The notes under the pieces were generated by a model. That model worked only from the letters and a program-made list of their open reading frames with translations. It was not told the origin of the DNA and ran no database searches. A stretch of DNA of 64,000 nt from an uncultured Clostridia bacterium (lineage in GTDB: Bacteria > Bacillota > Clostridia > Oscillospirales > CAG-272): assembly GCA_947586625.1 (NCBI GenBank), contig CANPXS010000001.1, forward strand, positions 4,001 to 68,000, given 5' to 3'. Below are positions 9,305 through 54,157 of the stretch, one piece after another; the stretch's first letter is position 1; every line of letters starts with the position of its first letter. The translations under genes and the position numbers were made by a program.

Positions 9305-9333
9305 TTGACAACTCACAAAACTTGTACTATAAT
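9305..9333 (+). promoter_or_regulatory. sigma-A type promoter of the valS leader
   Basis: TTGACA (9305-9310), 17-bp spacer, TATAAT (9328-9333). Confidence 0.75.
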
Positions 9334-9339
9334 ATCAAA

Positions 9340-9625
9340 ACAACAGCGACGACGGGGAGGAGTAGGCTTTTGCTCCCGCGCAAAGCGAGCCGGAGACGGT
9401 GAGAGTCCGGCGGCGGAGATGAGTCGAAGGTCGCCCCCGAGCTGCGGATGTGAAAGGATACGGGCACCGTGTGCCGTACTGTGTCCGTCAGCGTCCGCCG
9501 TGTGCGCACGTTACAGCGTCATGAGAGGATAAAGGGTCACACCTTTATCAATTCGGGTGGTACCGCGTATTTATTGCGTCCCGATGCCGTACTCTGTGCG
9601 GCGTCGGACGCTTTTTGTTTTGAAA
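9340..9625 (+). promoter_or_regulatory. T-box leader (tRNA-sensing riboswitch), presumably Val-specific
   Basis: Stem-I type AGCGAGCCGGAGACGGTGAGAGTCCGG and the T-box sequence AATTCGGGTGGTACCGCG (9550-9567). A terminator hairpin at 9576-9611 is followed by TTTTTGTTTT. Tentative GUC specifier at 9430-9432. Confidence 0.88.
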
Positions 9626-29406: not shown

Positions 29407-29423
29407 GGTTTTGTTGGTTTTTT

Positions 29424-29700
29424 GCAGGGAGAGAGAACCTTTTTGAAAAAAGTTTCTCTCTCCCTGCACCCTCTCTTTTCAAAAACTTTTACTACTTTTT
29501 TGTTTTGATAAATCTAACAAAAACAATATCCTCGGAGATAGCTTAAGATAATCACTAATCGGTCCGCTTTTGGAGAAGGTAGCATCTCCTCACTTTGTTC
29601 GGAGCTGCCACACTTTCCGCGTAAGCGGAAAGTGTCGGAGGTTTGGCGCGTAAGCGACGAGATACCCCTCTCATTTTCAAAAACTTTTATTAAATCGATT
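29424..29700 (+). repeat. composite structured intergenic repeat, copy R1 (hairpin H, tail, module C, module B)
   Basis: Hairpin GCAGGGAGAGAGAACC..GTTTCTCTCTCCCTGC (29424-29467). Tail ACCCTCTCTTTTCAAAAACTTTTA. Module C AACAATATCCTCGGAGATAGCTTAAGATAATCACTAATCGGTCCGCTTTTGGAG. Module B includes ACACTTTCCGC-GTAA-GCGGAAAGTGT (29610-29635). Confidence 0.9.
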
Positions 29701-29716
29701 CTCCCACCGACACGCG

Positions 29717-30531: not shown

Positions 30532-32784
30532 CTACAGCTTCTTCTCCGCAAATCTCGCCTTTATCTCATCGGTGCGCAACCGCTCCGTCATATACGCGCG
30601 GCGCAACAGCTCCGACGGAACGTAATCGTCGTACTTATCAAACGCCGGCGTCTCGTTGTCGCCGACGAGGTCGGCGACGTCGACGCCCGCCTCAAAGTCG
30701 GCGGCTATATTTCCGAGCAGCTCCTTCGCCGTCGTCTTCTCCATCTTGAACGAGATGAAGTAGCAACCCTCGTACTCGATGCCCGACAGCCCGAACCGCT
30801 TCGCATTCTTCGACAGATACCGCCGCAGCGTGCGGAACGATTTCGTCCCGAGCCACGGGAACATGCAGTACGTGAGTCCCCCGAGCGACACGAGCGGCGA
30901 GGACAGCATACCCGTGTTCCTCGCGACGCGGCGCGCGAGGTCGAGCCGCTTTGACGCGCCCGGCTTGAGATACGGATACTCCGTATCTTCCGCGAGCACG
31001 CGGTACATGCGCTCGAGTATGCGCGTGTGTATCTCGCCGAGTTCGCCCGGCCACGATATCTCCATCTTGCCCCCGACCGACTTGACGTATATCAGCTTGC
31101 GCGCAAGGTCGAGCTCCTCGACTTCCCAAACGCGTCCCGCGAGCGCGAATCTGTCGCCGACGGGCGGCGCCTCCGATATCGTGCCGATCTCGTCCGACTC
31201 ACAGCGGACCGTGTAATCCTCCGCATCCTTGAACACGGCGTAAAACTTGAATCCCGACGTCAGCCGTTCGCCCTTCATGCCGACGATCAGACCGCCCTCG
31301 TCGGTCAGCTCTAAAAAATCGTTTTTCACCATCGAGACGAGCAGCGTCCTGAAATCTTCCCTCTCGACAGCCTCGAACGGCGGCAGCGACAATATCCTGT
31401 CTGCGAGCCGCTTCGGCGACAGCTCGCCCGACGCGACGAGCGTCGACAGCGTCTGCTGAAAAAGGAGCGAGAACGGCATTTTCCTCGTCAGCGGCGGCTC
31501 TATGAACCGCTCCTCTATATAAAGCTGTATTATCGCTATCGCGCGCAAAAGCTCCCACGGCATCATCTGCGGCAGCGGCGTGTCCGGCACGGGCGCGTCC
31601 TCGCGGAACACCATCATCATTTCGGGCGGCTCTCCGCGCCGCCCCGACCTGCCGAGTCTTTGCAGAAACGACGACACCGAAATCGGCGACCCTATCTGCA
31701 CGATGCGCTCAAGCCTGCCTATATCTATGCCGAGCTCCATCGTGACAGTCGCACACGCCACCATGCGCTCCTCGTCGCTTTTGAGAAGCGTCTCCGCCTC
31801 CTCGCGTATCGACGCGGACAGATTGCCGTGATGTATCAGGAAAATATCGGGTTCGCGGCGATTCTCCGCGATCTGACGCAGCGTAGCGCACACATACTCC
31901 GTCTCCTCGCGCGAATTTGAAAACACGAGCGCGCGCCGCCCCTTCACGCAGTCGTACACATATTCATATCCGGGGTCGATCTCGCTCGGCATCTCGTCGG
32001 GCTCGAGCCCGAGATCGCCCTGCGACGGCGTTTTACGTATCTCATGCGTACCGACGTGCAGCGTCTCCTCGTCGGCGAGGTAAAAATGCTCGAGTCCGAG
32101 CCGCCACCGCAGCGGCACAGGCTTCACCTCCGGCACATCGCACACGCGCGTGTCGCCGCCCGACAGCCACTTAGCCGCGACCTCGACGTCGCCGACTGTC
32201 GCCGACAGTCCTATCCTGCGCGGACGGTGTCCGATCGCGCGCGAGATGCGTTCGAGCTGGCATATGACCTGATTGCCGCGGTCCGTGTTCGTCATCGTGT
32301 GTATCTCGTCGATTATGACGTAGCGCAGATCGGAAAATATGCGCGGTATGTCGTTCGGTCTGTTCATCAGCATAGACTCGAGCGACTCTGGCGTTATTTG
32401 CAGTATGCCCGCCGGCGACCGCAAAAGCTTCGCCTTGTGCGACTGCGCGACGTCGCCGTGCCAGTGATAGACGGGGATCCCCGTCGCGTCGAGCAGCTCG
32501 TCGACGCGCAGAAACTGATCGTTTATCAGACTCTTGAGCGGCGCGACGTATATCGCCCCGACGCTCTTCGGCGGGTCGGAGTAAAACTCCGACAAAATGG
32601 GGAACAGCGCCGCCTCCGTCTTGCCCGACGCCGTCGCCGACGTGATGAGCAGATTGTTGTCCGTGCAGAGTATAGTCTCCGCCGCCGCCAACTGTATCTC
32701 ATGCAGCCGCTCCCACCCGTGCGAATATATGTATTCCTGTATGAACGGCGAAAACCGCTCCATCACCTCTTCGGCTGATCTCAT
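30532..32784 (-). CDS. sngC: Lhr-like SF2 DExH helicase (Shango SngC-like)
   Basis: Motifs SATASGKTEAA, YVAPLKSLINDQ, VIIDEIHTM, GLSATVGD, ELGIDIG and QRLGRSGRRGE. ATG at 32784; the TTG-start extension to 32856 translates a repeat hairpin. Confidence 0.85.
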   Translation of the reverse strand: MRSAEEVMERFSPFIQEYIYSHGWERLHEIQLAAAETILCTDNNLLITSATASGKTEAALFPILSEFYSDPPKSVGAIYVAPLKSLINDQFLRVDELLDATGIPVYHWHGDVAQSHKAKLLRSPAGILQITPESLESMLMNRPNDIPRIFSDLRYVIIDEIHTMTNTDRGNQVICQLERISRAIGHRPRRIGLSATVGDVEVAAKWLSGGDTRVCDVPEVKPVPLRWRLGLEHFYLADEETLHVGTHEIRKTPSQGDLGLEPDEMPSEIDPGYEYVYDCVKGRRALVFSNSREETEYVCATLRQIAENRREPDIFLIHHGNLSASIREEAETLLKSDEERMVACATVTMELGIDIGRLERIVQIGSPISVSSFLQRLGRSGRRGEPPEMMMVFREDAPVPDTPLPQMMPWELLRAIAIIQLYIEERFIEPPLTRKMPFSLLFQQTLSTLVASGELSPKRLADRILSLPPFEAVEREDFRTLLVSMVKNDFLELTDEGGLIVGMKGERLTSGFKFYAVFKDAEDYTVRCESDEIGTISEAPPVGDRFALAGRVWEVEELDLARKLIYVKSVGGKMEISWPGELGEIHTRILERMYRVLAEDTEYPYLKPGASKRLDLARRVARNTGMLSSPLVSLGGLTYCMFPWLGTKSFRTLRRYLSKNAKRFGLSGIEYEGCYFISFKMEKTTAKELLGNIAADFEAGVDVADLVGDNETPAFDKYDDYVPSELLRRAYMTERLRTDEIKARFAEKKL

Positions 32785-32798
32785 GGTTTGATTTATAT

Positions 32799-33280
32799 CC
32801 GGAGGGAAAGGGACTTTTTGAAAAGTCCCTCTCCCTCCGGACCTCCCTCTCTTCAAAAACTTTTATTATATTTTTTATTTTGGCAAAGTAAACGGAAACA
32901 ATATCTTCGGAGATAGCTTAAGATATGCACTAATCGGTCCGCTTTTGTGCGAGGAGCATCTCCTCACTTCGTTCGGAGCTGCCACACTTTCCGCAAAGCG
33001 GAAAGTGTCGGAGGTTTGGAGCGTAAGCGACAAAACTCCCAACTTTCTACAAAAAGGTTCCTCGCAAATGAAAGAAGTCCCTCTCCCATTAATCACTATA
33101 TTTCAAAAACTTTTATTTCTTTTCTATTTTTACAAATCTGACGAAAACAATATCTTCAGGGCGGACTTAAGATAATCACTAATCGGTCCGCTTTTGGAGA
33201 AGGTAGGGGACACCTTTTACAAAAAGGGGTCCCCGAAACAAAAAAGTTTCCCCCATCTTATATCCCAAAAACTTATCACC
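32799..33280 (+). repeat. composite structured intergenic repeat, copy R2 (two tandem units)
   Basis: Hairpin CCGGAGGGAAAGGGAC..GTCCCTCTCCCTCCGG (32799-32840). It is followed by the tail, module C and module B (hairpin 32984-33008), then a second hairpin, tail, module C and hairpin. Same orientation as R1. Confidence 0.9.
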
Positions 33281-34708: not shown

Positions 34709-34714
34709 ATGGTT

Positions 34715-35015
34715 TATTCCCGGGGGAAAAACTTTTTATAAGAAAGTTGGCGTTTCCTTCGTAAACGCACGAGTTTTCTTCAAAAACTCTGTCCCCCCGA
34801 ACCCCCTTTTCAAAAACTTTTATTGACAATTTTTAATTATTGGTCAGGTAAAATTTAGTGCGGCTCCGAGCGCAGCGGCGAGCCGCCGATCGCTTTTGGG
34901 GAGGGGTGCGGGGAACACCTTTTCTTGGAAAAGGGGTTATCCGCCTTGTCCAAAAAAGTTTTCCCTCCGGACCTCCCTTTCAAAAACTTTTCCTGACTTT
35001 TTTATCTTACTATGA
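34715..35015 (+). repeat. composite structured intergenic repeat, copy R3 (diverged)
   Basis: It contains the tail motif TTCAAAAACT three times, G-rich/C-rich hairpins, and CCCTCCGGACCTCCCTTTCAAAAACTTTT shared with R2. Module C is degenerate (GCCGATCGCTTTTGG). Confidence 0.75.
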
Positions 35016-35020
35016 CTTTT

Positions 35021-36859
35021 TTACTCTAAATCCTGTCTGTAATCTTCAACGACTGCGTAGCCCCCGTCGCCGCCGGCTTCGAGCACGATATCGCCGATCT
35101 CGTCCGTTTCGGTCGCCGCATCGTTTATGCGCGCCGCGACCTCGTCCGCATAAATGCCGCGTTCGCGGCAATACTCGCCCTGCGCGTCAACACCCGCACC
35201 CGCAAGCACGAGACGCAGGAATCCCGCAGCGTCCCCGTCGAGCCGCGAATAAAGCCCGCCGCCGCTTACATCATCGCTTATTTCCGCCTTCGCGACTTCG
35301 ACCGCGTTCTCAACCGCATCTTCCACCGCATCCGCAACCGCAGTTGTATCCGTATCGTCGGCTTCAGCTTCCGTCTCCGTCAAAAGCTCCGTCGACGCCC
35401 ACGACGCACGCTCTATCTCCGCCGCGCTCTCCGCGTCCATGCCCACCGACAGCGCCTCGTACATGCTCCCGTCGTAGTCGCCGCCGAAAACGATGTCGTC
35501 GCTATTCTCGCCGTCCGCGCGCGTCGACTTCTTCGTTCTGTAAAACTGCGTCGGGAACTCGCGCGCAAAGTACTCGTCGACGAGCGACGCCAAATCGGGC
35601 GCAAGCTCGCCCACGCGCAGACGCGCCTTTATCCCGAGGCAAGACCGCAGCTTATTCTCCGCATATTTGACAAGCTCCGTTGCCGTCGACCGCAGTTCCC
35701 GCGACCGCACATACGACAGATACTCGATGTCGATGCGGCACTTGACGTTGTGCGCGCAAAGCGACCCGCAGAACGCGTCCCGCGAAACGACCGCCTCCCT
35801 CATCGACCCGCGCGATAACATATCGCCCCGCCGCTCAATGACATATCCGACGGCACCCGGCATATGGCGCTTGTATTCGTCCGCAGTTTTCTCTTCGAGC
35901 GCAAATTTGCTCTTCTGCCAATGGTAATCGGACGAAAGATCCATCCACGACCCGGCGCCGATGCTGCCGCCGTCGCCGGACATATAGAACTCCTTCAGCG
36001 TCGCCGCTTCGAGCACGGCGGGCAGAATGGGCGCAAGCTGCTCGAGCGGCGCTTGCAGACGGTTGATGAGACAGTAATCCGCCACCCATTCCGACAGGTA
36101 CTTGTCGAGCACCTTGTCCTTTTCCCTGTACGCGAGCCACACCGCGCACAAACTGCGCACGCCGTCCTCGGGCGCGATGACGCCGCGCAGATTAATTATC
36201 TCATACACATACAAAAGCACGTACGAGAACGACGCCGGCAGCCAAACTCCCGCCCTCGCGTTCTCGCGCCACCAAAGATAGTACGACAGCTGCGCCTTCG
36301 ACATCTGCCTGTACTGCGGCGTATACGAGAAGAAATCGACTTTTTCGCACTCGTGACCCTTCACATCCGCGTACCGCTTCGCGTCAAAGCGGAACTGCTC
36401 GTAAAAGCTGTACCGTGACGGCCACTGCATGACGCGCACACGCTTGATGAGGCCGTGCTCGGGCTCGTATTCGAGTATCGGCTCCGCCGTCGTACGCGAT
36501 GTGCGCGAGACGCTCTCGCGTCTCGGCAGGCGTAGCCTGTCCGCGTCCGTGTCCGTGTCATTATCAATATCTATATCAATACCGCCGCCGCCGCCAGACG
36601 ACCCGGTCATATTTACATTTATGTTTATATTTCTGTCTATGTTTACATTCGCGTTTATATTCACATTCGCGCCCGTGACCTCGCGGAACCGCGCCGACAG
36701 ACTGCCTCGCCCCCGCTGCGTCTCCGTCCTTGACGCTTCCGGCGCACCGAACTCTATTTCCACCGTCTCGACGTCGCGCTCGCGCCTTTGCACCGGCGGA
36801 CGCTTTTTCGGCACGAGAGAGGACAGATCCCAGAAGTCGTCCTTGTTCGTTTCAGCCAT
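35021..36859 (-). CDS. sngA: TerB-N/TerB-C domain protein (Shango SngA-like)
   Basis: 612 aa from MAETNKDDFWD (RBS GAAAGGAGAG). TerB-N-like core FFSYTPQYRQMSKAQLSYYLWWRENARAG. TerB-C-like tail ..ADEVAARINDAATETDEIGDIVLE..YAVVEDY. The ORF extension to 37108 lies in repeats. Confidence 0.8.
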   Translation of the reverse strand: MAETNKDDFWDLSSLVPKKRPPVQRRERDVETVEIEFGAPEASRTETQRGRGSLSARFREVTGANVNINANVNIDRNININVNMTGSSGGGGGIDIDIDNDTDTDADRLRLPRRESVSRTSRTTAEPILEYEPEHGLIKRVRVMQWPSRYSFYEQFRFDAKRYADVKGHECEKVDFFSYTPQYRQMSKAQLSYYLWWRENARAGVWLPASFSYVLLYVYEIINLRGVIAPEDGVRSLCAVWLAYREKDKVLDKYLSEWVADYCLINRLQAPLEQLAPILPAVLEAATLKEFYMSGDGGSIGAGSWMDLSSDYHWQKSKFALEEKTADEYKRHMPGAVGYVIERRGDMLSRGSMREAVVSRDAFCGSLCAHNVKCRIDIEYLSYVRSRELRSTATELVKYAENKLRSCLGIKARLRVGELAPDLASLVDEYFAREFPTQFYRTKKSTRADGENSDDIVFGGDYDGSMYEALSVGMDAESAAEIERASWASTELLTETEAEADDTDTTAVADAVEDAVENAVEVAKAEISDDVSGGGLYSRLDGDAAGFLRLVLAGAGVDAQGEYCRERGIYADEVAARINDAATETDEIGDIVLEAGGDGGYAVVEDYRQDLE

Positions 36860-36908
36860 GATCCGCACTCTCCTTTCGGCATAAAAAACATTTGTTCTAT
36901 ATCGTATT

Positions 36909-36937
36909 ATTATACCACAAAATTGCGATTTTGTCAA
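36909..36937 (-). promoter_or_regulatory. consensus extended -10 promoter of the Shango-like operon
   Basis: On the minus strand: TTGACA (36937-36932), 17-bp spacer ending in TGG, TATAAT (36914-36909). It lies about 50 nt upstream of the sngA-like ATG. Confidence 0.75.
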
Positions 36938-37019
36938 TCCGTTCGCAACGTTTTTTTGACGCTGCCGCCAAAAAAATAAGCGGGAGATGTGGTGCGAAAG
37001 AAAAATTGTAAGTGTATAT

Positions 37020-37542
37020 TTTGAAACGAGAGAAACTTTTTTCATTTGCGAGGAACCTTTTTGTAGAAAGTTGGGAGTTTTGTCGCTTACGCTCCAAACC
37101 TCCGACACTTTCCGCTTTGCGAAAATGTGTGTGTAACGTCTTCTCGTTACACTCGAAGCCGTCCTGCACTTTCCGCTTCGCGGAAAGTGTGGCAGCTCCG
37201 AGCAAAGCGAGGAGATGCTCCTCGCACAAAAGCGGACCGATTAGTGCATATCTTAAGCTATCTCCAAAATTATTGTTTCCGTTTACTTTGAAAAAACTTG
37301 TCATAAAAATTCTTGAAATATAGGTGTTAATGGGAGAGAAACTTTTTTCAGTTGCGAGGAACCTTTTTGTAAAAGTTTCCTCCCGCTCCTCCAAAAGCGG
37401 ACCGATTAGTGATTATCTTAAGCTATCTCCGAGGATATTGTTTCCGGTTGCTTTTTCAAAAGAAAAAATTGTAATAAAAGTTCTTGAAAAGAGAGGGTGC
37501 AGGGAGAGAAAAACTTCTTTCAAGAAGTTTTTCTCTCCCTGC
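37020..37542 (-). repeat. composite structured intergenic repeat, copy R4 (two units, inverted relative to R1-R3)
   Basis: Reverse complement of the R2/R1 module order. The long unit 37028-37290 has a 61-nt internal hairpin duplication. The short unit ends in hairpin 37499-37542, which abuts the csaB stop codon (37553). Confidence 0.9.
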
Positions 37543-37552
37543 AATAAACACC

Positions 37553-45048: not shown

Positions 45049-45453
45049 ATGAAAAATCATCGTTTTTTTGTTAAATTCGTCTCGGCGTCCGCCGCGTTCG
45101 CGCTAGCGCTTGCGGCGATGTCGCCGATATGCCTCGCTTATGAGCTGCCCGACGCGGAGCTTCTCGCCGCCTACATCGAGGGCGGTCCCGCCGACGAGCT
45201 CTACGGCATGATAGCCGTCGGCGCCACCATAATAAACCGCATACGCTCAGACGATTTCACCGATTCTCTCTCTGCGAACGCGTCCTCACTCGGCATATTC
45301 CCGTCGCCGTCGCCGTCCGAGATGGCGCTGTACGCGTCGCATCTTGTGCTGTCGGGCGAGGACCCGACGCACGGCGCTGTCCGCATCATACGCGGCAACG
45401 CGGACGGCGAAAACGTCACGCTCGTCACGTGCGGACTGTCGTTTTCGCGTTAG
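45049..45453 (+). CDS. secreted SleB-type cell wall hydrolase domain protein
   Basis: Signal peptide MKNHRFFVKFVSASAAFALALAAM, then AVGATIINRIRSDDFTDSL (Hydrolase_2-like). Confidence 0.6.
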   Translation: MKNHRFFVKFVSASAAFALALAAMSPICLAYELPDAELLAAYIEGGPADELYGMIAVGATIINRIRSDDFTDSLSANASSLGIFPSPSPSEMALYASHLVLSGEDPTHGAVRIIRGNADGENVTLVTCGLSFSR

Positions 45454-45636
45454 TGAAAACCATTCGCGTTAGTGAAAACCATTCGCGTTAGTGAAAACCA
45501 TTCGCGTTAGTGAAAACCATTCGCGTTAGTGAAAACCGTTCACGTTAGTGAAAACTTTGCGCGGCAGCACAAACCATTCGCGTCAACGCAAACCGTTTAC
45601 GGCAACGCAAACCGTTTACGGCAACGAAAAACGGGA
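45447..45636 (+). repeat. 19-bp tandem repeat array, 10 units in register
   Basis: GCGTTAGTGAAAACCATTC occurs 5 times near-perfectly (45447-45541), then five progressively diverged units (e.g. ACGGCAACGCAAACCGTTT). The first unit contains the stop codon of the upstream CDS. Confidence 0.9.
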
Positions 45637-45652
45637 CGCTGCAGCGTCCCGT
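45626..45652 (-). terminator. intrinsic terminator downstream of tRNA-Pro
   Basis: Minus-strand hairpin ACGGGACGC-TGCA-GCGTCCCGT followed by TTTTT. Confidence 0.8.
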
Positions 45653-45670
45653 ATTCGAAGGGTTTTAATA

Positions 45671-45744
45671 TCGGAGTGACTGGATTCGAACCAGCGGCCT
45701 CTTGGTCCCGAACCAAGCGCTCTACCGGACTGAGCCACACCCCG
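45671..45744 (-). tRNA. tRNA-Pro (anticodon CGG)
   Basis: The reverse complement CGGGGTGTGGCTCAGTCCGGTAGAGCGCTTGGTTCGGGACCAAGAGGCCGCTGGTTCGAATCCAGTCACTCCGA folds as a cloverleaf. The anticodon loop is TTCGGGA and the T-loop is GGTTCGAATCC. Confidence 0.95.
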
Positions 45745-45774
45745 ATATACGGTCGCTTCCGCGACAGCCTAAAC

Positions 45775-45804
45775 AGTATATCACGCGCGCCCCCGTCATG
45801 TCAA
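45775..45804 (-). promoter_or_regulatory. promoter of tRNA-Pro
   Basis: On the minus strand: TTGACA (45804-45799), 18-bp spacer, TATACT (45780-45775). Confidence 0.65.
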
Positions 45805-45859
45805 GTAGTTGGGGCAAAAAAGTTAATAAAAGTTTCCGTGGGGACTGCTGTGCCGCCTT

Positions 45860-46400
45860 CGCCGGCGGGAATGATGCACGCTTTCCGCGAAGCGGAAACC
45901 ACCGCCGCCCAAACGGTGACAATGAGCCGGAGGCTTCCAAGCAAAACCTACGCGCACCGTGCTCGTGCGCTGACGGCTCGTCCAGCGTCAAACGCAGACA
46001 CGACGTTTTGACGGTGATATCGCCCCGTCGCGAGGGAGCTGTTCGCAGGAAGTTATAACGCGGTGTTCTTTTGGAGAGGGGGGGCGGGCGTAGGTTGGCG
46101 CGAAGCGACAAACTACCACTTTTCTCTTAATAAGAAAAGGTCCTCATCCCCGTTTATCTCTTTCTTGCGAGAAAGTCCCCCTTGTCAAAAACATGTTCGT
46201 AGGTGTGAAAGACGTCACCACGTCAGGTGTGCAAAGGTAGCTGCCGGTGGAGACGCACCGCATGATGAACCGCGTGTGAGCAGTATCTCCTCACTGCGTT
46301 CGGAGCTACGACACGTTTTCGCTTCGCGAAAAGTGTGGGAGATGCCAGTTTCGGAAACGGGTGAGCAGTAGCGCGAAAAATAATACATAAATTTGTGAAA
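45860..46400 (+). repeat. decayed tandem copies of repeat modules (module B type and hairpin/tail type)
   Basis: Examples: CACGCTTTCCGC-GAA-GCGGAAACC (~45876). GCAGTATCTCCTCACTGCGTTCGGAGCTACGACACGTTTTCGCTTCGCGAAAAGTGTGG (~46283-46340). CGTAGGT...GCCGG units, and a hairpin/tail-like stretch ending in TTGTCAAAAACATG (~46130-46195). Confidence 0.7.
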
Positions 46401-46405
46401 AGCAC

Positions 46406-46434
46406 TTGACAAATCATCAAATTTGTGGTATAAT
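46406..46434 (+). promoter_or_regulatory. perfect extended -10 sigma-A promoter with no downstream ORF
   Basis: TTGACA (46406-46411), 17-bp spacer ending in TGG, TATAAT (46429-46434). Confidence 0.75.
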
Positions 46435-46440
46435 ATAGGT

Positions 46441-46790
46441 GGTCAAGGGAAAGAGGTGTTTGTAGGTTGAGCGGGGGAGTCTGCGAATAGCTCCCTCGCG
46501 GCATGGCGAGTACGCGGCAGGTCGTCGCTGACGCGACGACCTGCGACACATTTCCGCTTCGCGGAAAGTGTGGTGAAAAACTGGCATCAGGTAATAACGC
46601 ACGAGTACGGCGCGCGTAGGTGAAGCTGGGAAGCCGGTATCTCCTCACTACGTTCGGAGATACTACACGTTTCCGCTGACGCGGACAGTGTGACGTTACC
46701 CTCACTTGGTCGGCGGCGGTTTTGCTTCGCAGAAAGTGCCGTGTAATGATTGTACAAACAAACCGCCGCGAGGCGGTTTGTTTGCATATG
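46441..46790 (+). ncRNA. candidate novel structured non-coding RNA (~350 nt)
   Basis: It is bounded by the consensus promoter and the terminator hairpin CAAACAAACCGCC-GCGA-GGCGGTTTGTTTG (46755-46784). It contains no credible ORF. Inside are a perfect 12-bp hairpin (46517-46544) and two module-B hairpin pairs. Confidence 0.5.
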
Positions 46791-46860
46791 TGCTGCAAGC
46801 CCGTTTGTAAAATCCCCACATTTTTTGCGTTTCCCGCGCACAGATTTTACATTTGACACA

Positions 46861-46889
46861 TTGACATGATTTTTGTGCGGGGATATAAT
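46861..46889 (+). promoter_or_regulatory. promoter of the mrp-like operon
   Basis: TTGACA (46861-46866), 17-bp spacer, TATAAT (46884-46889), about 20 nt before the mrpE ATG. Confidence 0.7.
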
Positions 46890-46909
46890 CTAATAAATAT
46901 GAAAGAATT

Positions 46910-47404
46910 ATGCGGCGGTACGTCGGAATGATACTTATACTTTTTATTTTTTGGATAATTTTATCGGGCAGAGTGACGCTCGAAATAGCTGTCTTCGGCG
47001 CGCTTGCGACGGCGCTCGTGTACATAATAACGTCGCGCGCGCTCGGGTGGGACATAAAGCGCGAGCTTGCGTTTTACAGGCTGACGCCGCACATCGCCGC
47101 TTACGGCGCGCTGCTCTTCGTCGAGATCATAAAGTCCAACATCGCCGTTCTGCCGTATGCGTGGGGAATAAAAAAGCCGAACGGGCGCATCGTGGAGTTC
47201 GATTCGGGGCTGCAGAGCGAGACCGCGGTCGCGGTGCTCGCGAACAGCATCACGATGACGCCGGGCACGATAACGATATCCGCCGACGGCGGACGGCTGA
47301 CGGTACACTGTCTTTCGCCGGAGTTCGCGGACGGCATCGAGTCGACAAAGTTCGCAAAACGGCTTTCCAAAATGGAGAAAATACCGGGGGTGATAAAGAA
47401 ATGA
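46910..47404 (+). CDS. mrpE: cation:proton antiporter subunit E (MrpE/MnhE)
   Basis: 164 aa, N-terminal TM pair, with the motif NSITMTPGT typical of MnhE. Confidence 0.85.
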   Translation: MRRYVGMILILFIFWIILSGRVTLEIAVFGALATALVYIITSRALGWDIKRELAFYRLTPHIAAYGALLFVEIIKSNIAVLPYAWGIKKPNGRIVEFDSGLQSETAVAVLANSITMTPGTITISADGGRLTVHCLSPEFADGIESTKFAKRLSKMEKIPGVIKK

Positions 47405-47703
47405 CTGTCGCCGAAGCGTACAGATATATGTTCCTCGCCGTGCTCGCGGCGCTGTCCGCATATGCGTGCTGCGGAATCGTCCGCGCGATAGCGACGAAAA
47501 ACACCGCGTGCCGCGTGCTCGGCGTGAATATGACGGGCAGCGCCGTAATAGCCGCGATAATAGTCATGACGGTGATGATGGGGGAGAGCTACCTTGCCGA
47601 CGTGGCGCTTTTATACGTGCTCGTCAACTTCGTCTCGGTCGTGATACTCAACCGCGTTTTCGTCGCGGCTAATGAAAAAAAGCGCGGGGAGGCGAAAAAG
47701 TGA
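47401..47703 (+). CDS. mrpF: cation:proton antiporter subunit F (MrpF/MnhF)
   Basis: 100-aa, three-TM protein. ATGA overlap with the mrpE stop. It is read in the frame of ORF 46951-47703 from the ATG at 47401. Confidence 0.75.
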   Translation: MTVAEAYRYMFLAVLAALSAYACCGIVRAIATKNTACRVLGVNMTGSAVIAAIIVMTVMMGESYLADVALLYVLVNFVSVVILNRVFVAANEKKRGEAKK

Positions 47704-48047
47704 TGGCGGCGTGGGTCAGATTCGGTTTCAGCGCGTTCTTTGCTGTAATCGGAGTATTCGCGTTCATAAGCGCCGCCGTCGGCGCGTTCCGTCTCGACTA
47801 CGTGCTGTCGCGCATGCATGCGACGGCGCTCGCCGACACGGTCGGCATCGGCGCAATAGCTGTATCGGCGTCGATCGCGGCGGGCGTCGACTTTGTGACG
47901 CTGAAGCTGTTGTTTTCTGCGGCGGCGATGGTTTTGACCTCGCCGGTGTCGACGCATATGCTCGCGGAGCTCGAATACAGGACGGGCGACGAGCTTTATA
48001 AGCACGTCAAATTCAAAGTCGGGAAGAAGTGGGAGAGACTGAAATGA
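47700..48047 (+). CDS. mrpG: cation:proton antiporter subunit G (MrpG/MnhG)
   Basis: 115 aa with ..YVLSRMHATALADTVGIG.., typical of MnhG. The start overlaps the mrpF stop. Confidence 0.8.
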   Translation: MMAAWVRFGFSAFFAVIGVFAFISAAVGAFRLDYVLSRMHATALADTVGIGAIAVSASIAAGVDFVTLKLLFSAAAMVLTSPVSTHMLAELEYRTGDELYKHVKFKVGKKWERLK

Positions 48048-48403
48048 GCGGAGATATCATCGAGGGCATAAGGATCGCGCTGCTTATAATGCTCATTATC
48101 GCCGCAGTCGCGGCAAGCGTAATGAAAAAGCTCGTGCCGGCGCTCATAGTTTTCACCTCGTTTTCGCTCATAATGGCGCTTTTGTGGATACTGCTCGAAT
48201 CGCCGGACCTCGCCATAACGGAGGCGGCGGTCGGCGCGGGAGTTTCGGGAGTGCTATTTTACATGGCGATACACAGAATGGGTCAGATGAAGGAAAAATT
48301 CGAAGATAAGGAGGGCGGCGCAGGCGATGAAGAAGGCGAAGAAAGCGCCAAAGACGCAGCCGGAGACGGCGAAGGTAAGCGGGACGGCGGCGAGCAGCAT
48401 TAA
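48044..48403 (+). CDS. MnhB N-terminal-like (DUF4040) membrane subunit with an acidic tail
   Basis: LLWILLESPDLAITEAAVGAGVSG motif. ATGA overlap with the mrpG stop. Confidence 0.75.
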   Translation: MSGDIIEGIRIALLIMLIIAAVAASVMKKLVPALIVFTSFSLIMALLWILLESPDLAITEAAVGAGVSGVLFYMAIHRMGQMKEKFEDKEGGAGDEEGEESAKDAAGDGEGKRDGGEQH

Positions 48404-49253
48404 AAAGTGGCTCGACTTCGACCTCGACATAGATTCGCTGCCGGTGCCGCCGCCACGTGAGAGCGCGGAGGACGACGGCGGCGACGAGACGCCGCTTCTC
48501 TCGCGCATACCGAAGAGCGCGCCGCGGTTCGTGTATACGGCGCTCGCCGCGATATGCTCGATAGTGCTGACGGCGACGCTGATATTGACCGTCGAGGGCA
48601 TGCCGCGTTACGGCGAGGATCAGGACTACATGGACACCGTGACGTACGAGTACATCACGCACGGCATGGAATACACAGGCGCGGTCAACATCGTCGCGGG
48701 CATCATACTCGAGTACCGCGCGTTCGACACGCTCGGCGAGTCGTTCGTGCTGTTCTGCGCGGTGACGTGCGTGCTCGTGCTGCTGCGCGCAGACAGCGCG
48801 GACTCGATGCCGGAGGACGTCGTATTCCGCGACCTGTCGCACGACGCGATACTGCGGCGCACGGTGCTTGCGATCGTGCCGCTCGTATTCATGTTCGGCG
48901 TATACGTGCTCTTAAACGGGCATCTGTCGCCGGGAGGCGGATTCTCGGGCGGAGCCGTGATAGGCGCGGGGCTCGTGATGGTGTCGGTCGCATACGGCGG
49001 CGACGTGTCGGGGCGCATCGTCTCGGAGCGCGTATTCAAAATAGTGACAACGTGCGCGCTGTCGTTTTACTGTCTCGGTAAAAGCTACACGTTTTTTACG
49101 GGCGCGAACGGGCTTCACAGCATCGTCGGCAACGGCACGCCGGGCAACATACTGAGCGCGGGGCTGATCCTGCCTTTGAACGTCGCCGTCGGCATGGTCG
49201 TGGCGTGCACCGTATACGGCATATACAGAATGTTTGACAAAAGGAGCTTTTAG
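48327..49253 (+). CDS. mrpB: MnhB-domain antiporter subunit (MrpB-like)
   Basis: GAVNIVAGIILEYRAFDTLGESFVLF motif. AAGGAGGG lies 11 nt before the ATG at 48327. It overlaps the upstream gene by 77 nt. Confidence 0.75.
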   Translation: MKKAKKAPKTQPETAKVSGTAASSIKKWLDFDLDIDSLPVPPPRESAEDDGGDETPLLSRIPKSAPRFVYTALAAICSIVLTATLILTVEGMPRYGEDQDYMDTVTYEYITHGMEYTGAVNIVAGIILEYRAFDTLGESFVLFCAVTCVLVLLRADSADSMPEDVVFRDLSHDAILRRTVLAIVPLVFMFGVYVLLNGHLSPGGGFSGGAVIGAGLVMVSVAYGGDVSGRIVSERVFKIVTTCALSFYCLGKSYTFFTGANGLHSIVGNGTPGNILSAGLILPLNVAVGMVVACTVYGIYRMFDKRSF

Positions 49254-49256
49254 GCG

Positions 49257-49634
49257 ATGGGCAATCTCTTATACAACTACGAAGAAGCCGTCGCGCTCAT
49301 ACTGTTTTCTATCGGCTTCATGACGCTCCTGTTTCACAAAAATCTCCTGCGCAAGCTGATAGGCATGAACATAATGGACTCGGGCGTTTACCTTTTCCTC
49401 GCGTCGATGGGGTACATATACGGGCGCCGCGCGCCTATCGTCGAAAACGGCGACGTGAGCGCGGAGCATTACGTCAACCCCGTCCCCGCCTCGCTCGTGC
49501 TGACCGGCATCGTCGTCTCCGTCTCGGTGACGGCGGTCATGCTGTCGCTCGCGGTCAGGCTCTACGAGCGGTATCACACCCTCAACCTCGACGAGATCTA
49601 CGCCGCCGCCCGCACGAGACGCGAACATCGGTAG
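49257..49634 (+). CDS. mrpC: cation:proton antiporter subunit C (MrpC/NuoK-like)
   Basis: 125 aa, three TM helices, with LIGMNIMDSGVYLFLAS. Confidence 0.8.
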   Translation: MGNLLYNYEEAVALILFSIGFMTLLFHKNLLRKLIGMNIMDSGVYLFLASMGYIYGRRAPIVENGDVSAEHYVNPVPASLVLTGIVVSVSVTAVMLSLAVRLYERYHTLNLDEIYAAARTRREHR

Positions 49635-49639
49635 TAGTG

Positions 49640-49735
49640 GTTTCGTGGGGGAGAGGAGAACTCTTATAAGAGTTCCCCTCTCCCCCACACCCCCACACCC
49701 TTCAGAATTTTTTATGACTTTTTTCTATTAAAGGT
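49640..49735 (+). repeat. hairpin-plus-tail repeat module inside the mrp operon
   Basis: GGGGGAGAGGAGAACTCTTATAAGAGTTCCCCTCTCCCCC followed by ..CCCTTCAGAATTTTTTATGACTTTTTT. This matches the hairpin/tail design of R1-R4. Confidence 0.75.
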
Positions 49736-49747
49736 ATTTGATTATAT

Positions 49748-51259
49748 ATGGAATTTATCAGAAATTTTCCGTTTTTTTCGGTGGCAGTATTTCTGTTTTC
49801 CGCGGTCATATGCTCGGTATTAAAACCGCGAGCGGCGCGGATATGGACTGTCGCCGCCGAGACGGCGGTGCTCGCGTTCTCTGCGTGCGTGCTATACTAC
49901 ACATGGTCGACGGGAGAGTTTTTTCGCTACAACATGGGCCATTTCGACGCGCCGTGGAGCAACCAGCTCCGCGCAGGCGTGCTCGAGGGCGTCGCGGCGA
50001 CGGGTTTTTCGCTTATTTTGCTTTTGTCTCACATAGGCGGCATGCGATATGTGAATGCCGACATCGAGAATAAAAAGCAGTCCGCGTACTGCACGCTTTT
50101 AAATCTCATCGGCGCGGCGCTGATGGCGCTCGCGTACACGAACGATTTGTTCACCGGCTACGTTTTCCTTGAAATAATGACGCTTTCGTCTTGCGGCATA
50201 CTTATGATAAGACGCGCGGGACGCACGGCGCTTGCGGCGACGCGGTACATGGTGATAAATTTGCTCGGGTCGGGTCTGTTTCTGCTCGGGACTTGCCTGT
50301 TCTACGGTATCACGGGTCATCTTCTGATGGAGTACATAGGCGCGGGAGTCGCAACACTCGACGCGACGGGCGATTACGCGGTGCCGCTGACGGTCACGAT
50401 AGGTCTCGTATGCGCGGGACTTGCGATAAAGGCGGGACTTTTCCCGTTCCACACATGGATGCCGGACACGTACGGCACGGCGACGCCCACGTCGTCGGCG
50501 GTGCTGTCGGGGATCGTGTCAAAGGGGTACATATTCCTGCTTGTCAAGATCATGTACCGCGTCGCGGGCGTGAACACGGAGGCGATGACGGCGGCGCGCC
50601 ACATTCTTTACGTTTTCGGCATACTCGGCATAATCCTCGGCTCCGTTTGGGCGATGCGGTCCGCGTACCTCAACCGCATGATAGCGTTCTCGTCGGCGGC
50701 GCAGATAGGCTACATCTTCGTCGGCATAGGGCTCGGCGGGACGGCGGGATTTACGGCGGCGCTGTTCCAGCTCATCGCGCACGGACTGACGAAGCCGCTT
50801 CTCTTTTTGTCGGGCGCAAGGCTCGCGGAGTCGTCGGGCGACAGTCAGTATTTCGCCGACTTACAGGGAGCCGCGCACAGGAACCGCGCGGCAGGAGCCG
50901 CGTTCACAGTGGCGGCGCTTTCTATGGTGGGAATACCGCTTCTTGCGGGATTCCCCGTCAAGCTATATTTTGCGATCGCGTCCGTGCAGCACGGCATACT
51001 CGTCGACGCGGTGACGCTTCTGACGCTTGCGGTCAGCACGCTGCTCAACGCTCTTTACTTCATACGCACGGCGATAAGGATATACACGCCGTCGGTGCGT
51101 CCGGCTGAGAAAAACGAGTCGCAGGTCGTGATAGACAAAAAAAGCGACCCCGGGCTCGCTGTCGCGGCCGTGGGATTTGCGCTTGCGATAGTGTCGCTCG
51201 GCGTGTTCCCGGGCTCGCTCTCGTCACTGATAACGACGGGACTGTCGATGTTCGCATAA
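49748..51259 (+). CDS. MrpD/NuoN-type proton-conducting membrane transporter, copy 1
   Basis: 503 aa, about 14 TM helices, with GLFPFHTWMPDTYGTATPTSSAVLSG. Confidence 0.85.
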   Translation: MEFIRNFPFFSVAVFLFSAVICSVLKPRAARIWTVAAETAVLAFSACVLYYTWSTGEFFRYNMGHFDAPWSNQLRAGVLEGVAATGFSLILLLSHIGGMRYVNADIENKKQSAYCTLLNLIGAALMALAYTNDLFTGYVFLEIMTLSSCGILMIRRAGRTALAATRYMVINLLGSGLFLLGTCLFYGITGHLLMEYIGAGVATLDATGDYAVPLTVTIGLVCAGLAIKAGLFPFHTWMPDTYGTATPTSSAVLSGIVSKGYIFLLVKIMYRVAGVNTEAMTAARHILYVFGILGIILGSVWAMRSAYLNRMIAFSSAAQIGYIFVGIGLGGTAGFTAALFQLIAHGLTKPLLFLSGARLAESSGDSQYFADLQGAAHRNRAAGAAFTVAALSMVGIPLLAGFPVKLYFAIASVQHGILVDAVTLLTLAVSTLLNALYFIRTAIRIYTPSVRPAEKNESQVVIDKKSDPGLAVAAVGFALAIVSLGVFPGSLSSLITTGLSMFA

Positions 51260-51275
51260 GGGGGAAAAACGGAAG

Positions 51276-52712
51276 ATGACGTATATTATTCTTACTATCG
51301 TTATACCGATCATCGCGGGCGCGCTGTTGCCCGTGTGGAGATTCGGCAGCCGCACGACGGCGCGCGCCGTATATGTGCTCGCAGCGACGGCGGCGACGTG
51401 CGCGGCGGCTGTGATGTCGTTTCTGCGCGGCGAGTCGGTTCTGTTTCTGACGCTCGCTGACGGCGTCACTATCTCGTACGGCGTCGACAGGATCGCGGTC
51501 ATATTCGCCGCCGTGTTCGTGTTCTCATTCTTCATCGTCGCGATATATGCGCCCCGCTACATAAAGCACGAGGGGCGCGACGACAGATTCTTCGCATTTT
51601 TCCTTCTCTCGCTCGGCGCGATGATGTCGCTGTCGTTCTCGTCGAACCTCGTGACGATGTATTTCTCGTTCGAGCTCGTGACGCTGCTCTCGATGCCGCT
51701 CGTGCTCCATTCGGGCACGAAGGAGGCGAACGCGGCAGCGCTCAAATATCTTTTCTACTCGATAGCGGGCGCGCTCATGGGTCTTTTCGGCATCGTGGTG
51801 CTCCACCCGATAACGAACGCGGGCGCGTTCTCGCTCGGCGGCACGCTGTCATCGACTGCCTCGTCTGCGATGGTGTGCACGGCGGTGTTTATGTGTGTCG
51901 TCGGGTTCGGCGCGAAGGCGGGCATGTACCCGATGCACGGCTGGCTGCCGTCCGCGCACCCTGTCGCGCCTGCACCCGCGTCGGCGCTTCTGTCGGGCAT
52001 AATAGCAAAGGCGGGCGTCCTCGCCGTAATACGCGTCGTATTCTACGTTGTCGGCATAGACGCGATACGCGGCACATGGACGGCTGTGACGTGGACGGTG
52101 CTCGCATCGATAACGGTCATTATGGGGTCGATGATGGCGTACCGCGAGGACATACTGAAAAAGCGCCTCGCGTATTCGACGGTGTCCAACATCTCGTACA
52201 TGATGCTCGGACTGTCGATGCTGTCCGCGACGGGCGAGCTCGGCGCGATAATGCACTTTATCGCGCACGCGCTGGCGAAAAATGCGCTCTTTCTGTCGGC
52301 TGGTTCGGTGATATATAAAACGGGCAAAACTAAGGTGTCGGAGCTGTCCGGCATCGGACGCAGGATGCCGGTGACGATGGGGGCGTTCACGGTCGCCGCG
52401 CTGTCGCTTATCGGAATACCGCCGCTGCTCGGATTTACGTCGAAGTGGTATTTGTGCATGGCGGGAGTTGAGGAGGGCGGCGCGCTCGCAATAATCGTGC
52501 CCGCTGTACTCATAGTGTCGGCGCTTCTGACGGCGGGGTATCTGTTGCCCGTTGTGATAAAAGGCTATTTCCCCGGCAAGGGCAGCGCGAAGCCGGACGT
52601 TGACGAGGCTCCCGTGCCAATGGTGTTTGCCGCAGTTTTATTTGCGGCGCTGTCGCTCGTAACGGGCATATTCGCGCCCGTGCTCGCGGACTTCATAGGC
52701 GGTGCACTATGA
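51276..52712 (+). CDS. MrpD/NuoN-type proton-conducting membrane transporter, copy 2
   Basis: 478 aa with GMYPMHGWLPSAHPVAPAPASALLSGIIAKAG. Confidence 0.85.
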   Translation: MTYIILTIVIPIIAGALLPVWRFGSRTTARAVYVLAATAATCAAAVMSFLRGESVLFLTLADGVTISYGVDRIAVIFAAVFVFSFFIVAIYAPRYIKHEGRDDRFFAFFLLSLGAMMSLSFSSNLVTMYFSFELVTLLSMPLVLHSGTKEANAAALKYLFYSIAGALMGLFGIVVLHPITNAGAFSLGGTLSSTASSAMVCTAVFMCVVGFGAKAGMYPMHGWLPSAHPVAPAPASALLSGIIAKAGVLAVIRVVFYVVGIDAIRGTWTAVTWTVLASITVIMGSMMAYREDILKKRLAYSTVSNISYMMLGLSMLSATGELGAIMHFIAHALAKNALFLSAGSVIYKTGKTKVSELSGIGRRMPVTMGAFTVAALSLIGIPPLLGFTSKWYLCMAGVEEGGALAIIVPAVLIVSALLTAGYLLPVVIKGYFPGKGSAKPDVDEAPVPMVFAAVLFAALSLVTGIFAPVLADFIGGAL

Positions 52713-54157
52713 GCGAATATTTTCTGCTTCTGCCGATACTTATACCGATAGCGGGCGGCGCGATCTTGTGGTTTTTCCGCACCGGAGACTTGGTGCGCAA
52801 CATCATAACGGAGCTTTTCGTGCTCGCGAACGCTGCGTGCACATGGACGCTCGCGTTTTTCCGTCCGCAGAATGAGCTTCATATGTTCGCGTTCAGCGAA
52901 CGTCTCGTTTTGAAGCTGCGCCTTGACGGACTCGGGACGTTCTTCCTCGTCATGGCGTCGACGCTGTGGATATTCGTCGCGGTATATGCGTTTTCGTATA
53001 TGAAGACGGAGGAGCACAGGCACATGTTCTTCACGTTCTTCACGCTGTCGCTCGCCGCCGTCGACGGAGTCGCGCTCGCGGGCAACATAATCACGCTTTA
53101 CTTCTTTTACGAAATGCTGACGCTGACGACGCTGCCGCTCGTCATGCACGGCTGCAAAAAAGTCGACATGCACGCGGGACGCGTCTACGCCGCGTATCAG
53201 CTCGGCGGCGCCGCGTTCGCTCTCGTCGGGATAATATATCTCACCTCTGTCGCGGGAGCGGGCGATTTCGTGCTCGGCGGCTACGTCAAGACGGCCGATA
53301 CGACCGTCATGGCTGTGTGGCTCGTGATGCTGCTCGGCTTCGGCGTCAAGGCGTGCATATTCCCCCTTTACCGTTGGCTTCCGACGGCGTCGGTGGCACC
53401 GACGCCCGTGACGGCGCTGCTGCACGCGGCGGCTGTCGTCAAAGCGGGCGTGTTCGCGGTGATGAGGCTGTCGTATTTCACGTTCGATCCCGCGATACTT
53501 AGGGGGAGCAGAGTCGGCGGAGCCGGTTTCCTGCTCGCGTGCTTCACGGCTGTGTTCGCCTCGGTGTTGGCAGTTCGCGAGGGTCACTTCAAAAGACGGC
53601 TCGCGTATTCGACGGTGTCGAATCTGTCCTATATTCTCGTCGGCGTTCTGACGTTCACGGAAGCGGGACTTGCGGCGGGGCTTTGCCATATGCTTTATCA
53701 CGCTATGATAAAGCTGAACGCGTTCCTCGCGTGCGGCGCGTTTATGAAGCGGACGGGAAAGCATAACGTGGAGGACCTTGACGGCATAGGATACAAGATG
53801 CCGGTCACGTTCGCATGCTTCACCGTGTCGGCGCTGGCGCTGTGCGGTATACCGCCGCTTAACGGATTTGTGTCGAAGTGGATGCTGCTCTCGTCGGTGA
53901 CGGCGGGCGGCGACGTGCTGTCGATGATAGGCGGCGCGTCGCTGATAGCGGCGTCGCTTCTGTGCGCCGTATACATGCTGACGTGCGCGGTGCGCGCGTA
54001 TTTCCCCGCGAAGGGGAGCGTCCCGACAGACGCGAAAGAGGCTCCGCTCGGCATGGTGCTGCCGATGGCGGTGTTCGCCGTCGCAAATATACTGCTCGGC
54101 GTTTTCTCGACGCCGATAACGAACATCGTGACCGCGATCGCGGGCGGCGCGTTTTAG
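52709..54157 (+). CDS. MrpD/NuoN-type proton-conducting membrane transporter, copy 3
   Basis: 482 aa with IFPLYRWLPTASVAPTPVTALLHAAAVVKAG. It overlaps the upstream stop. Confidence 0.85.
   Translation: MSEYFLLLPILIPIAGGAILWFFRTGDLVRNIITELFVLANAACTWTLAFFRPQNELHMFAFSERLVLKLRLDGLGTFFLVMASTLWIFVAVYAFSYMKTEEHRHMFFTFFTLSLAAVDGVALAGNIITLYFFYEMLTLTTLPLVMHGCKKVDMHAGRVYAAYQLGGAAFALVGIIYLTSVAGAGDFVLGGYVKTADTTVMAVWLVMLLGFGVKACIFPLYRWLPTASVAPTPVTALLHAAAVVKAGVFAVMRLSYFTFDPAILRGSRVGGAGFLLACFTAVFASVLAVREGHFKRRLAYSTVSNLSYILVGVLTFTEAGLAAGLCHMLYHAMIKLNAFLACGAFMKRTGKHNVEDLDGIGYKMPVTFACFTVSALALCGIPPLNGFVSKWMLLSSVTAGGDVLSMIGGASLIAASLLCAVYMLTCAVRAYFPAKGSVPTDAKEAPLGMVLPMAVFAVANILLGVFSTPITNIVTAIAGGAF

Follow-up and report, generated by a model that had tools for sequence, protein, structure and literature searches.

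A repeat-derived, promoter-driven candidate small RNA upstream of the mnh/mrp operon in an uncultured rabbit-gut Clostridia lineage

The DNA analyzed here (the window) is a stretch of 64,000 nucleotides from an uncultured Clostridia bacterium (GTDB lineage Bacteria; Bacillota; Clostridia; Oscillospirales; CAG-272), corresponding to positions 4,001 to 68,000 of the forward strand of contig CANPXS010000001.1 in assembly GCA_947586625.1. Between a tRNA-Pro gene (45670-45745) and mnhE (46910-47404) of the mnh/mrp Na+/H+ antiporter operon, the plus strand carries a promoter, P1, that starts at 46406, and an intrinsic terminator that ends at 46790. A preliminary description of this DNA had claimed about 345 nt that follow the promoter and end at a terminator hairpin, and a non-coding, hairpin-rich stretch is indeed what we see there. 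On balance, we lean towards reading the region as a free-standing, independent non-coding transcription unit. The most economical reading of the sequence would be a lineage-restricted, dispensable, promoter-driven candidate non-coding RNA that is built from modules resembling those of the REP and BOX repeats.

P1 consists of the hexamers TTGACA (46406-46411) and TATAAT (46429-46434), separated by a 17-nt spacer, and a TG at 46426-46427 makes it an extended -10 promoter (TGgTATAAT). All hexamer positions match the consensus (12/12), so that the perfect promoter claimed for 46406-46434 stands. An A/T-rich tract that on direct reading resembles an UP element (46373-46405, plus strand) abuts the -35 hexamer on its upstream side. 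Throughout the window, 14 promoter-like sites with at most one mismatch were found, against 0.35 expected from shuffled sequences, and almost all of them precede genes, a tRNA or a T-box, including mnhE, tRNA-Pro and the T-box leader. A match to the consensus is therefore a good predictor of a real promoter in this genome. Self-comparison of the window showed that the P1 block is present as a single copy. A second perfect promoter (46861-46889, plus strand), which serves mnhE and the mnh/mrp operon, bounds the candidate RNA on its downstream side and lies outside it.

As a promoter of the strong, housekeeping type, P1 would start transcription near 46441, a position deduced from promoter geometry alone, which would give a leader of 46441-46470. 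Beyond it, the RNA is predicted to fold as a string of largely independent hairpins: H1, a perfect stem of C type, hairpins of B2 type and a module B. H1 (46471-46499) pairs GCGGGGGAG with CTCCCTCGC across an 11-nt loop (-17.7 kcal/mol), and because its stem holds a G-U pair it is fully paired on the plus strand only. H2 (46517-46544; -24.1 kcal/mol) is a perfect 12-bp palindrome. Both pairings had been pointed out before, and both are found at these positions. H2 corresponds to an inverted, "perfected" copy of the C-type module, 46522-46573 being 87% identical to the reverse complement of 29608-29660. It is followed by the B2-type hairpin H3 (46546-46572; ACACATTTCCGC-TTC-GCGGAAAGTGTG), by a core (46598-46635; CGCACGAGTACGG..GTAGGTGAAGCTGGGAAGCC) that is common to all copies of the element, and by a module B (46637-46691) made up of hairpin B1 (46637-46663; 8-bp stem, conserved 11-nt loop TCACTNNGTTC) and hairpin B2 (46665-46691). 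Thus, of the two module-B hairpin pairs proposed inside the RNA, one is a complete module B, and the other turned out to be the inverted C-type stem together with the B2-type hairpin 46546-46572. A degenerate B2-type hairpin, H6 (46714-46741), precedes the intrinsic terminator (46755-46790; -21.3 kcal/mol). As had been described, the stem of the latter is a perfect 13-bp hairpin, CAAACAAACCGCC-GCGA-GGCGGTTTGTTTG (46755-46784), with a GC-rich centre; the A- and T-tracts that flank it make the terminator potentially bidirectional. Transcription ending here would yield an RNA of about 345 nt. Our operational definition of a small-RNA gene includes a promoter of its own that is kept in relatives and an intrinsic terminator ahead of the next gene, and both are found at this locus.

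Relatives of the region were collected in two ways. At the level of the species, 14 further contigs from members of the MnhE 90% cluster were looked up and sorted into two alleles. The W-type allele (the window, L084, L087, L088, L089 and L090) carries P1 and the body, which are 98.6-100% identical, and the terminator. In the L-type allele (L002, L091-L096 and, judging by 190 nt of its upstream DNA, L097), the terminator is the same and the body related, but the promoter is missing and the upstream genes are different. For more distant relatives we made use of a protein search, since gene callers sometimes call a spurious open reading frame (ORF) across the region: a 198-aa minus-strand ORF as query led to P0047, and P0047 in turn to P0069, which lies on L103. 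The latter is a 617-nt ENA contig that was read on its minus strand, whereas P0047 (on an NCBI contig) is known by back-translation only.

These comparisons carry our view of P1. The promoter is unchanged in the W-type contigs L084, L087 and L089. L103 also has a perfect TTGACA-17-TGgTATAAT promoter, in which none of the 14 hexamer and TG positions differ from the window as against 5 of the 17 spacer positions, and the back-translation of P0047 allows for both hexamers, 17 nt apart. The UP-element-like tract is only 57% identical in L103, yet its richness in A/T is kept. The leader is 81% identical in L103, and the H1 stem is identical, all three changes falling in the loop; the 5' arm of H1 is missing from the promoter-less paralogues. 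Because hexamers, spacing and TG survive while spacer and flanks have diverged, it can be argued that promoter activity is under selection. P1, the leader and H1 behave as if selected, being conserved while spacer, loops and flanks drift.

Elsewhere, conservation is patchier. L103 shares the upstream block 46160-46272 of the window (86% identical), and a complete module B that the window has upstream of P1, outside the P1 transcript (46283-46336, plus strand), is missing there. Its core is 87% identical to that of the window, resembles that of a minus-strand paralogue in the window (45805-46150), and is also found in that paralogue, L002 and L092. L103 has a module B just where the window has it, and both hairpins of this module show compensatory changes; neither the L-type allele nor the minus-strand paralogue contains one. 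H2 is missing from L103, the paralogue and the L-type allele; L103 also lacks H3, which lies within a block of about 80 nt that is unique to the W-type allele. In place of the window's terminator, L103 has a different hairpin with a T-run, and then another TTGACA. The back-translation of P0047 is compatible with a leader that holds a Shine-Dalgarno-like sequence, the 3' arm of H1 and the core, apparently without module B. What the promoter-bearing homologues with DNA read (the window allele and L103) have in common is therefore P1, the leader, H1, a core ending in GCTGGGAAGCC, and module B. Conservation outside this genome, which the preliminary description had left as something to be looked for, thus comprises five other assemblies of the same allele and two distant homologues with the promoter intact (P0047 by back-translation).

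The coding potential of the region is poor. The longest ATG ORF (46503-46619) has 38 codons and no Shine-Dalgarno sequence, in line with the earlier reading, and no plus-strand ORF of at least 20 codons has a ribosome-binding site. No ORF is conserved among the homologues, and neither a credible nor a conserved protein was found. Likewise, the claim that no known RNA family is involved held up in a search with Rfam 15: at gathering thresholds, the whole window returned the T-box (9340-9586) and tRNA-Pro only, and permissive scans of 45400-47100, L103 and L084 gave best E-values of 0.28-0.66 (0.28 for the window region), far below threshold. Membership in 6S, tmRNA, RNase P, SRP, T-box, nhaA-I or DUF1646 riboswitch families was thus not found for the candidate. 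ARAGORN, run for tRNA and tmRNA, reported tRNA-Pro 45670-45745 as its sole match. The T-box leader itself (119.8 bits) directly follows a perfect promoter (9305-9333), and a 929-aa ORF comes next.

The description of the region as a structured RNA stands in part: its local hairpins recur, whereas a conserved global structure is not supported. The sequence folds much better than shuffles on both strands (z = -4.9 for the plus strand and -7.5 for the minus strand), and the folding energy therefore reflects the palindromes rather than a strand-specific RNA. In an RNAalifold consensus of the window, L087 and L103, the 5' part of the core pairs with the leader in the window and L103: a helix between about 46460-46470 and about 46596-46606 would enclose the variable hairpins. 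Its three one-sided changes (3/3) preserve pairing, but since the comparison amounts to two sequences we take this weak evidence as a hint only. Covariation can be seen for the module hairpins across repeat copies; the whole-RNA alignment consists effectively of two diverged sequences, and the W-type single-nucleotide polymorphisms (SNPs) are uncompensated.

The body is a mosaic of palindromic modules that recur elsewhere in the window, which bears out the claim of a repeat-derived RNA. Self-comparison of the window defined the modules B1, B2 and C. Module B combines hairpin B1, with the 11-nt loop given above, and hairpin B2 (ACACTTTCCGC-loop-GCGGAAAGTGT); the window holds five copies against 0 expected, four on the plus strand (29584, 32958, 46285 and 46639) and one on the minus strand (37216). 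Lone B2-type hairpins lie at 46546, 45877 and 37100, with a degenerate one at 46714, and the C-type module follows module B in the intergenic regions of a Shango-like operon. Across seven copies of module B, 94.7% of cells are paired and three pairs have changed on both sides, so the module hairpins are maintained. Short imperfect palindromes in several intergenic copies and both orientations, and a modular mosaic with strain indels, are marks of repeats of the REP/BIME or BOX type. Both are seen here, the indels among the window, L103, the L-type allele and the paralogue, and between L002 and L092. Within the window, the modules are concentrated at two loci only, 29-37 kb and 45.8-46.7 kb. 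The second of these includes the minus-strand paralogue, an inverted copy of the RNA body (nhmmer E=9e-115) that lies directly upstream of the tRNA-Pro promoter; no promoter was found in front of it. Between a SleB-like gene and the tRNA-Pro terminator, we also noted some 11-12 tandem copies of a 19-nt unit (TTCGCGTTAGTGAAAACCA; 45406-45633). This array degenerates toward the tRNA, and L087 aligns with it in a different register or length, which suggests that its copy number varies.

At the first locus, the label Shango-like fits the neighbouring genes, which encode a TerB_N protein, a BrxC/D-type ATPase and a DEAD-box helicase. Modules B and C lie on the plus strand in two intergenic regions of this operon (29582-29665 and 32956-33040), the minus-strand mRNA of which would carry the complement, and an inverted module B (37165-37218, minus strand) lies upstream of the promoter of the TerB_N gene. 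The operon genes are separated by composite repeats of 250-600 nt (29410-29716, 32780-33280, 34709-35020 and 36940-37552), which contain strong A/T-loop hairpins, a conserved segment of about 100 nt with AAAAGCGGACCGATTAGTG, the motif TAAAAGTTTTTGAAAAGAGAGGG, and modules B and C. Near-identical inverted B+C blocks, at 32944-33048 (plus) and 37070-37232 (minus), bracket the BrxC/D-like ATPase and TerB_N genes; in the copy at 37 kb, the B2 hairpin is duplicated and an additional hairpin has been inserted. The longest TerB_N ORF (35021-37108) contains a perfect TTGACA-17-TGnTATAAT promoter (36909-36937, minus strand) within its 5' end, and because of this the true TerB_N start codon is probably downstream of 36909.

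The two alleles of the species differ in what lies upstream. Within the GTDB collection, the genome nearest to the window is L002, a metagenome-assembled genome of a rabbit-gut Clostridia with 96% MnhE identity, in which 1850-8535 matches window positions 46720-53409 at 95.2% nucleotide identity; the two are collinear from 46720 onward only. In L002, a LysR-family gene precedes the element in place of tRNA-Pro, and module B and the H2/H3 block are absent. Its element is 82% identical to the minus-strand paralogue of the window, compared with about 60-79% identity to the plus-strand RNA body. Position 46720 thus marks a strain-level rearrangement breakpoint, with holA-DUF1934-SleB-tRNA-Pro upstream of mnh in the W-type and a LysR-family regulator in the L-type allele, as read in L002 1-1850 and L092 1-645, and collinearity begins inside the degenerate B2 hairpin H6. 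W-type strains themselves diverge sharply upstream of about 46270. Within the L-type, L002 (~1625-1660) has a C-type module of 33 nt (GTGGTAGTTTGTCGCTTCGCGCCAACCTACGCC), placed where an A/T-loop hairpin has its foot, that L092 (~440-450) lacks, the contigs being otherwise about 95% identical. L084 has lost 4 nt from the 3' arm of the terminator stem (~830-840, corresponding to window 46773-46784) in a contig that is otherwise identical; its coverage is about 2x, and the deletion may be an assembly error.

Within the W-type, the RNA of L087 and L089 differs from that of the window by 4-5 changes in 350 nt (98.6-98.9% identical), whereas 9 of 164 third codon positions of mnhE differ and the identity over mnhEFG is 96.4-96.9%. 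This low divergence of the RNA suggests that it is constrained or that the block was shared recently. The SNPs are 46441 G>A, 46497 C>A, 46543 G>A, 46684 and 46686, the last two in the 3' arm of B2. The element was looked for at 80 MnhE loci of GTDB species other than that of L002 and occurs at none of them, and the upstream regions of L003, L098-L100, L101 and L102 are unrelated to it. Pattern searches of JGI metagenomes gave no matches to module B or to P1 plus H1; in IMG/VR, the B2 hairpin pattern gave none, and the module B pattern one chance match inside a coding region (L082). The range of the candidate RNA is probably limited to a narrow group of Clostridia from the rabbit gut, in which some strains lack it.

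Several observations weigh against an independent non-coding RNA. No promoter was found in front of the L002 element, although L002 belongs to the same species, with about 95% nucleotide identity downstream; as one of its alleles lacks the promoter, the species can dispense with the P1 unit. Promoters are missing from two paralogous bodies as well, and no element was found upstream of mnhE in L003 (67% MnhE identity) and L101 (73%). The terminator belongs to the backbone that is shared with the promoter-less allele, and for that reason it is not evidence specific to the RNA. The conservation among W-type contigs could merely reflect a recent recombination block. In L087 and L089, the changes 46497 C>A (an H1 pair) and 46543 G>A (an H2 pair) break strong stems, and neither is compensated. 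The body varies greatly, with blocks of about 80 nt that come and go, and both the 3' end and the terminator are replaced in L103. Furthermore, there is no shared global fold: the minimum-free-energy folds of the window and L103 differ, and the long-range helices of the RNAalifold consensus rest on effectively two sequences.

Some of these points would be expected if the transcript were a by-product, that is, if an orphan P1, located at a rearrangement hotspot, fired into a mosaic of repeats and the RNA itself were without function. P1, the ribosome-binding site and the start codon would then be left from a lost or displaced gene, or from a promoter-bearing repeat cassette, and the backbone terminator would stop the transcript and insulate the mnh operon. 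The locus does lie at a rearrangement breakpoint, the two alleles differing upstream; the L-type allele has the terminator but not P1; the body, a mosaic of modules, is hypervariable and has uncompensated, stem-breaking SNPs; P1 is followed by a Shine-Dalgarno-like sequence and a TTG that open an ORF of just 7 codons; and repeats that carry promoters have been documented, namely the Neisseria REP2 and Correia elements (PMC3184786). We consider this account unlikely, though it deserves to be taken seriously, because the hexamers, spacing and TG of P1 survive in L103, and apparently in P0047, despite diverged spacer and flanks, because the leader and H1 are conserved as well, and because the P1 block is single-copy in the window. 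The head-to-head inverted copies 45877-46048 and 46481-46635, between which P1 lies, raise the thought of an invertible switch that would flip P1 between the mnh and tRNA-Pro sides. The L-type element even looks like a hybrid, its 5' end being nearer to the minus-strand paralogue and its 3' end nearer to the plus-strand copy. An inverton, however, should have near-perfect inverted repeats and occur in both orientations. Here, the arms are just 84-86% complementary over 29-38 nt and not collinear, and P1 has one orientation relative to both flanks in all assemblies that cover it (L084, L087, L089 and L103). There is no recombinase gene among the adjacent genes examined, and what lies upstream of the L-type element is not an inverted copy but unrelated sequence. 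We therefore regard a promoter switch as extremely improbable.

Two further explanations would give the transcript a role in the expression of what it precedes or contains. The region could be a cis-acting leader of the mnh/mrp operon, in which transcription from P1 would normally stop at 46755-46784 and conditional read-through would add to expression from the operon's own promoter. It is oriented like mnhE and immediately precedes it in every W-type contig, in L103 and P0047 the sequence likewise ends at a TTGACA similar to that of the mnh promoter, and the T-box of the window shows that a perfect promoter followed by a leader is a style that exists in this genome. Such a role is nevertheless quite unlikely. 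A riboswitch or attenuator should have no promoter between itself and its gene and be conserved wherever the operon is conserved; here, a perfect promoter (46861-46889) stands between the terminator and mnhE, is conserved in L002, L003 and L101, and has no second promoter beside it at that place in the L-type allele, L003 or L101, and neither L003, L101 nor the 80 MnhE loci show the element to be conserved along with the operon. Moreover, no anti-terminator alternative was identified, no Rfam riboswitch matched, the Na+/Li+ riboswitch families included, and the terminator region is not conserved in L103. The other possibility is a small peptide or regulatory leader peptide. The Shine-Dalgarno-like AGAGGTG (46452-46458), which the preliminary description had overlooked together with its mini-ORF, lies at an ideal spacing of 8 nt ahead of a TTG (46467), is conserved in L103 and is compatible with P0047. 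In L103, the same TTG opens a 24-codon frame (MGGGACEQLPRDGAIAPTRRRVCV), and both the minus-strand paralogue and L002 keep this frame open as well, with residues that are similar. On the other hand, in the window, L084, L087 and L089 it ends after 7 codons (TAG, 46488-46490), further along the window carries a 1-nt deletion relative to the other copies, the start codon lies at the foot of the -17.7 kcal/mol hairpin, and the paralogues in which the frame is open have no promoter or matching start. Substitutions by codon position, counted by eye, are 2/1/4 between L103 and the paralogue and 5/4/5 between the paralogue and L002, with no clear third-position excess. A frame of 7 codons in the window and the other W-type contigs as against 24 in L103, with no clear third-position bias, does not fit a small-protein gene, and we give a peptide very little credence.

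The independent non-coding transcription unit towards which we lean would have arisen as a copy of a repeated intergenic element, into which the modules B1, B2 and C were inserted or from which they were lost. The sequence features and their conservation pattern are what we show; that the RNA is produced and acts through its module hairpins we infer, and any specific trans-acting mechanism is much less certain. Conceivably, the RNA would base-pair with module copies of complementary sequence elsewhere, for instance in 3' or intergenic stretches of the mRNAs of the Shango-like operon, or it might titrate a factor that binds the module hairpins. The same palindromic modules as in module B and the C+B2 block of the RNA are found after stop codons and between genes of the TerB/ATPase/helicase operon, and module B of the RNA is antisense to the copies on the minus-strand operon transcripts (29582-29635 and 32956-33009). 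Local cofolding with module B gave ddG values of -25.5 kcal/mol for the copy at 29582-29665 and -24.5 kcal/mol for that at 32956-33040, a predicted heteroduplex of about 55 bp being favoured by about 25 kcal/mol over the separate hairpins. The C+B2 block would act as a mimic, since it has the same sense as the operon mRNA. Pairing or competition with the intergenic RNA of the operon, as proposed before, is thus possible according to these models. Duplex prediction with the whole transcript against the operon intergenic regions was uninformative, because control segments scored equally, and the local cofold was used instead. A role in trans as partner of the Shango-like defence island, with the RNA either soaking up a hairpin-binding protein or pairing through its module hairpins, with loop-loop contacts to the TerB/ATPase/helicase mRNA segments that would extend into the duplex of about 55 bp, seems to us very doubtful. 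If it were true, the expression of defence genes would be linked to an RNA locus that varies between strains.

If the transcript is real, it would be a small RNA of gut Clostridia assembled from mobile palindromic modules, in which the promoter has been preserved while the body was reshuffled. It would then provide a useful case, strain-variable in its presence, of how repeat elements can give rise to RNA genes, with a speculative link to a defence operon that contains the same modules. It would be no new class of system, and with so narrow a distribution its wider impact is limited.

How does the candidate relate to known systems? It resembles the curated RNA families (6S, tmRNA, RNase P, SRP, the large ncRNAs and the Na+/Li+ riboswitches) in its size range, strong promoter and terminator, and differs from them in that no covariance model matches near threshold and no global architecture is conserved. 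The modules have no sequence relationship to REP/BIME, BOX, REP2 or Correia elements, and the likeness to these repeats is one of organization. The pneumococcal BOX elements (boxA-boxB-boxC) are modular intergenic repeats, variable in the number and order of their modules, that form extensive hairpins, are present in some strains and absent from others, and can be co-transcribed or expressed as RNA (Croucher et al. 2011, PMC3049150). Similarly, the modules B1, B2 and C of the window are joined in differing combinations and orientations; unlike BOX, they show no similarity in sequence, their host is an uncultured rabbit-gut Clostridia lineage instead of Streptococcus pneumoniae, and one of the mosaics has its own conserved consensus promoter and terminator. 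With the REP/BIME elements of enterobacteria (PMC3184786), the modules share the form of imperfect palindromes of about 25-35 nt that lie after stop codons or between operon genes, in both orientations and in clustered mosaics, and the module hairpins here are kept by compensatory change; the difference is that the modules are seen at two loci in the 64-kb window. The Neisseria REP2 and Correia repeats supply a promoter, in the case of REP2 also a ribosome-binding site and a start codon, and yield small intergenic transcripts; repeat-derived small RNAs are a further precedent (PMC3184786). P1 followed by a Shine-Dalgarno-like sequence and a TTG is the same layout as that of REP2, but the P1 block is single-copy in the window, and the transcribed part is a repeat mosaic and not a downstream gene. 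The region may be seen as a repeat-derived, lineage-specific small-RNA candidate, for which BOX, REP/BIME and the promoter-bearing repeats provide the precedents.

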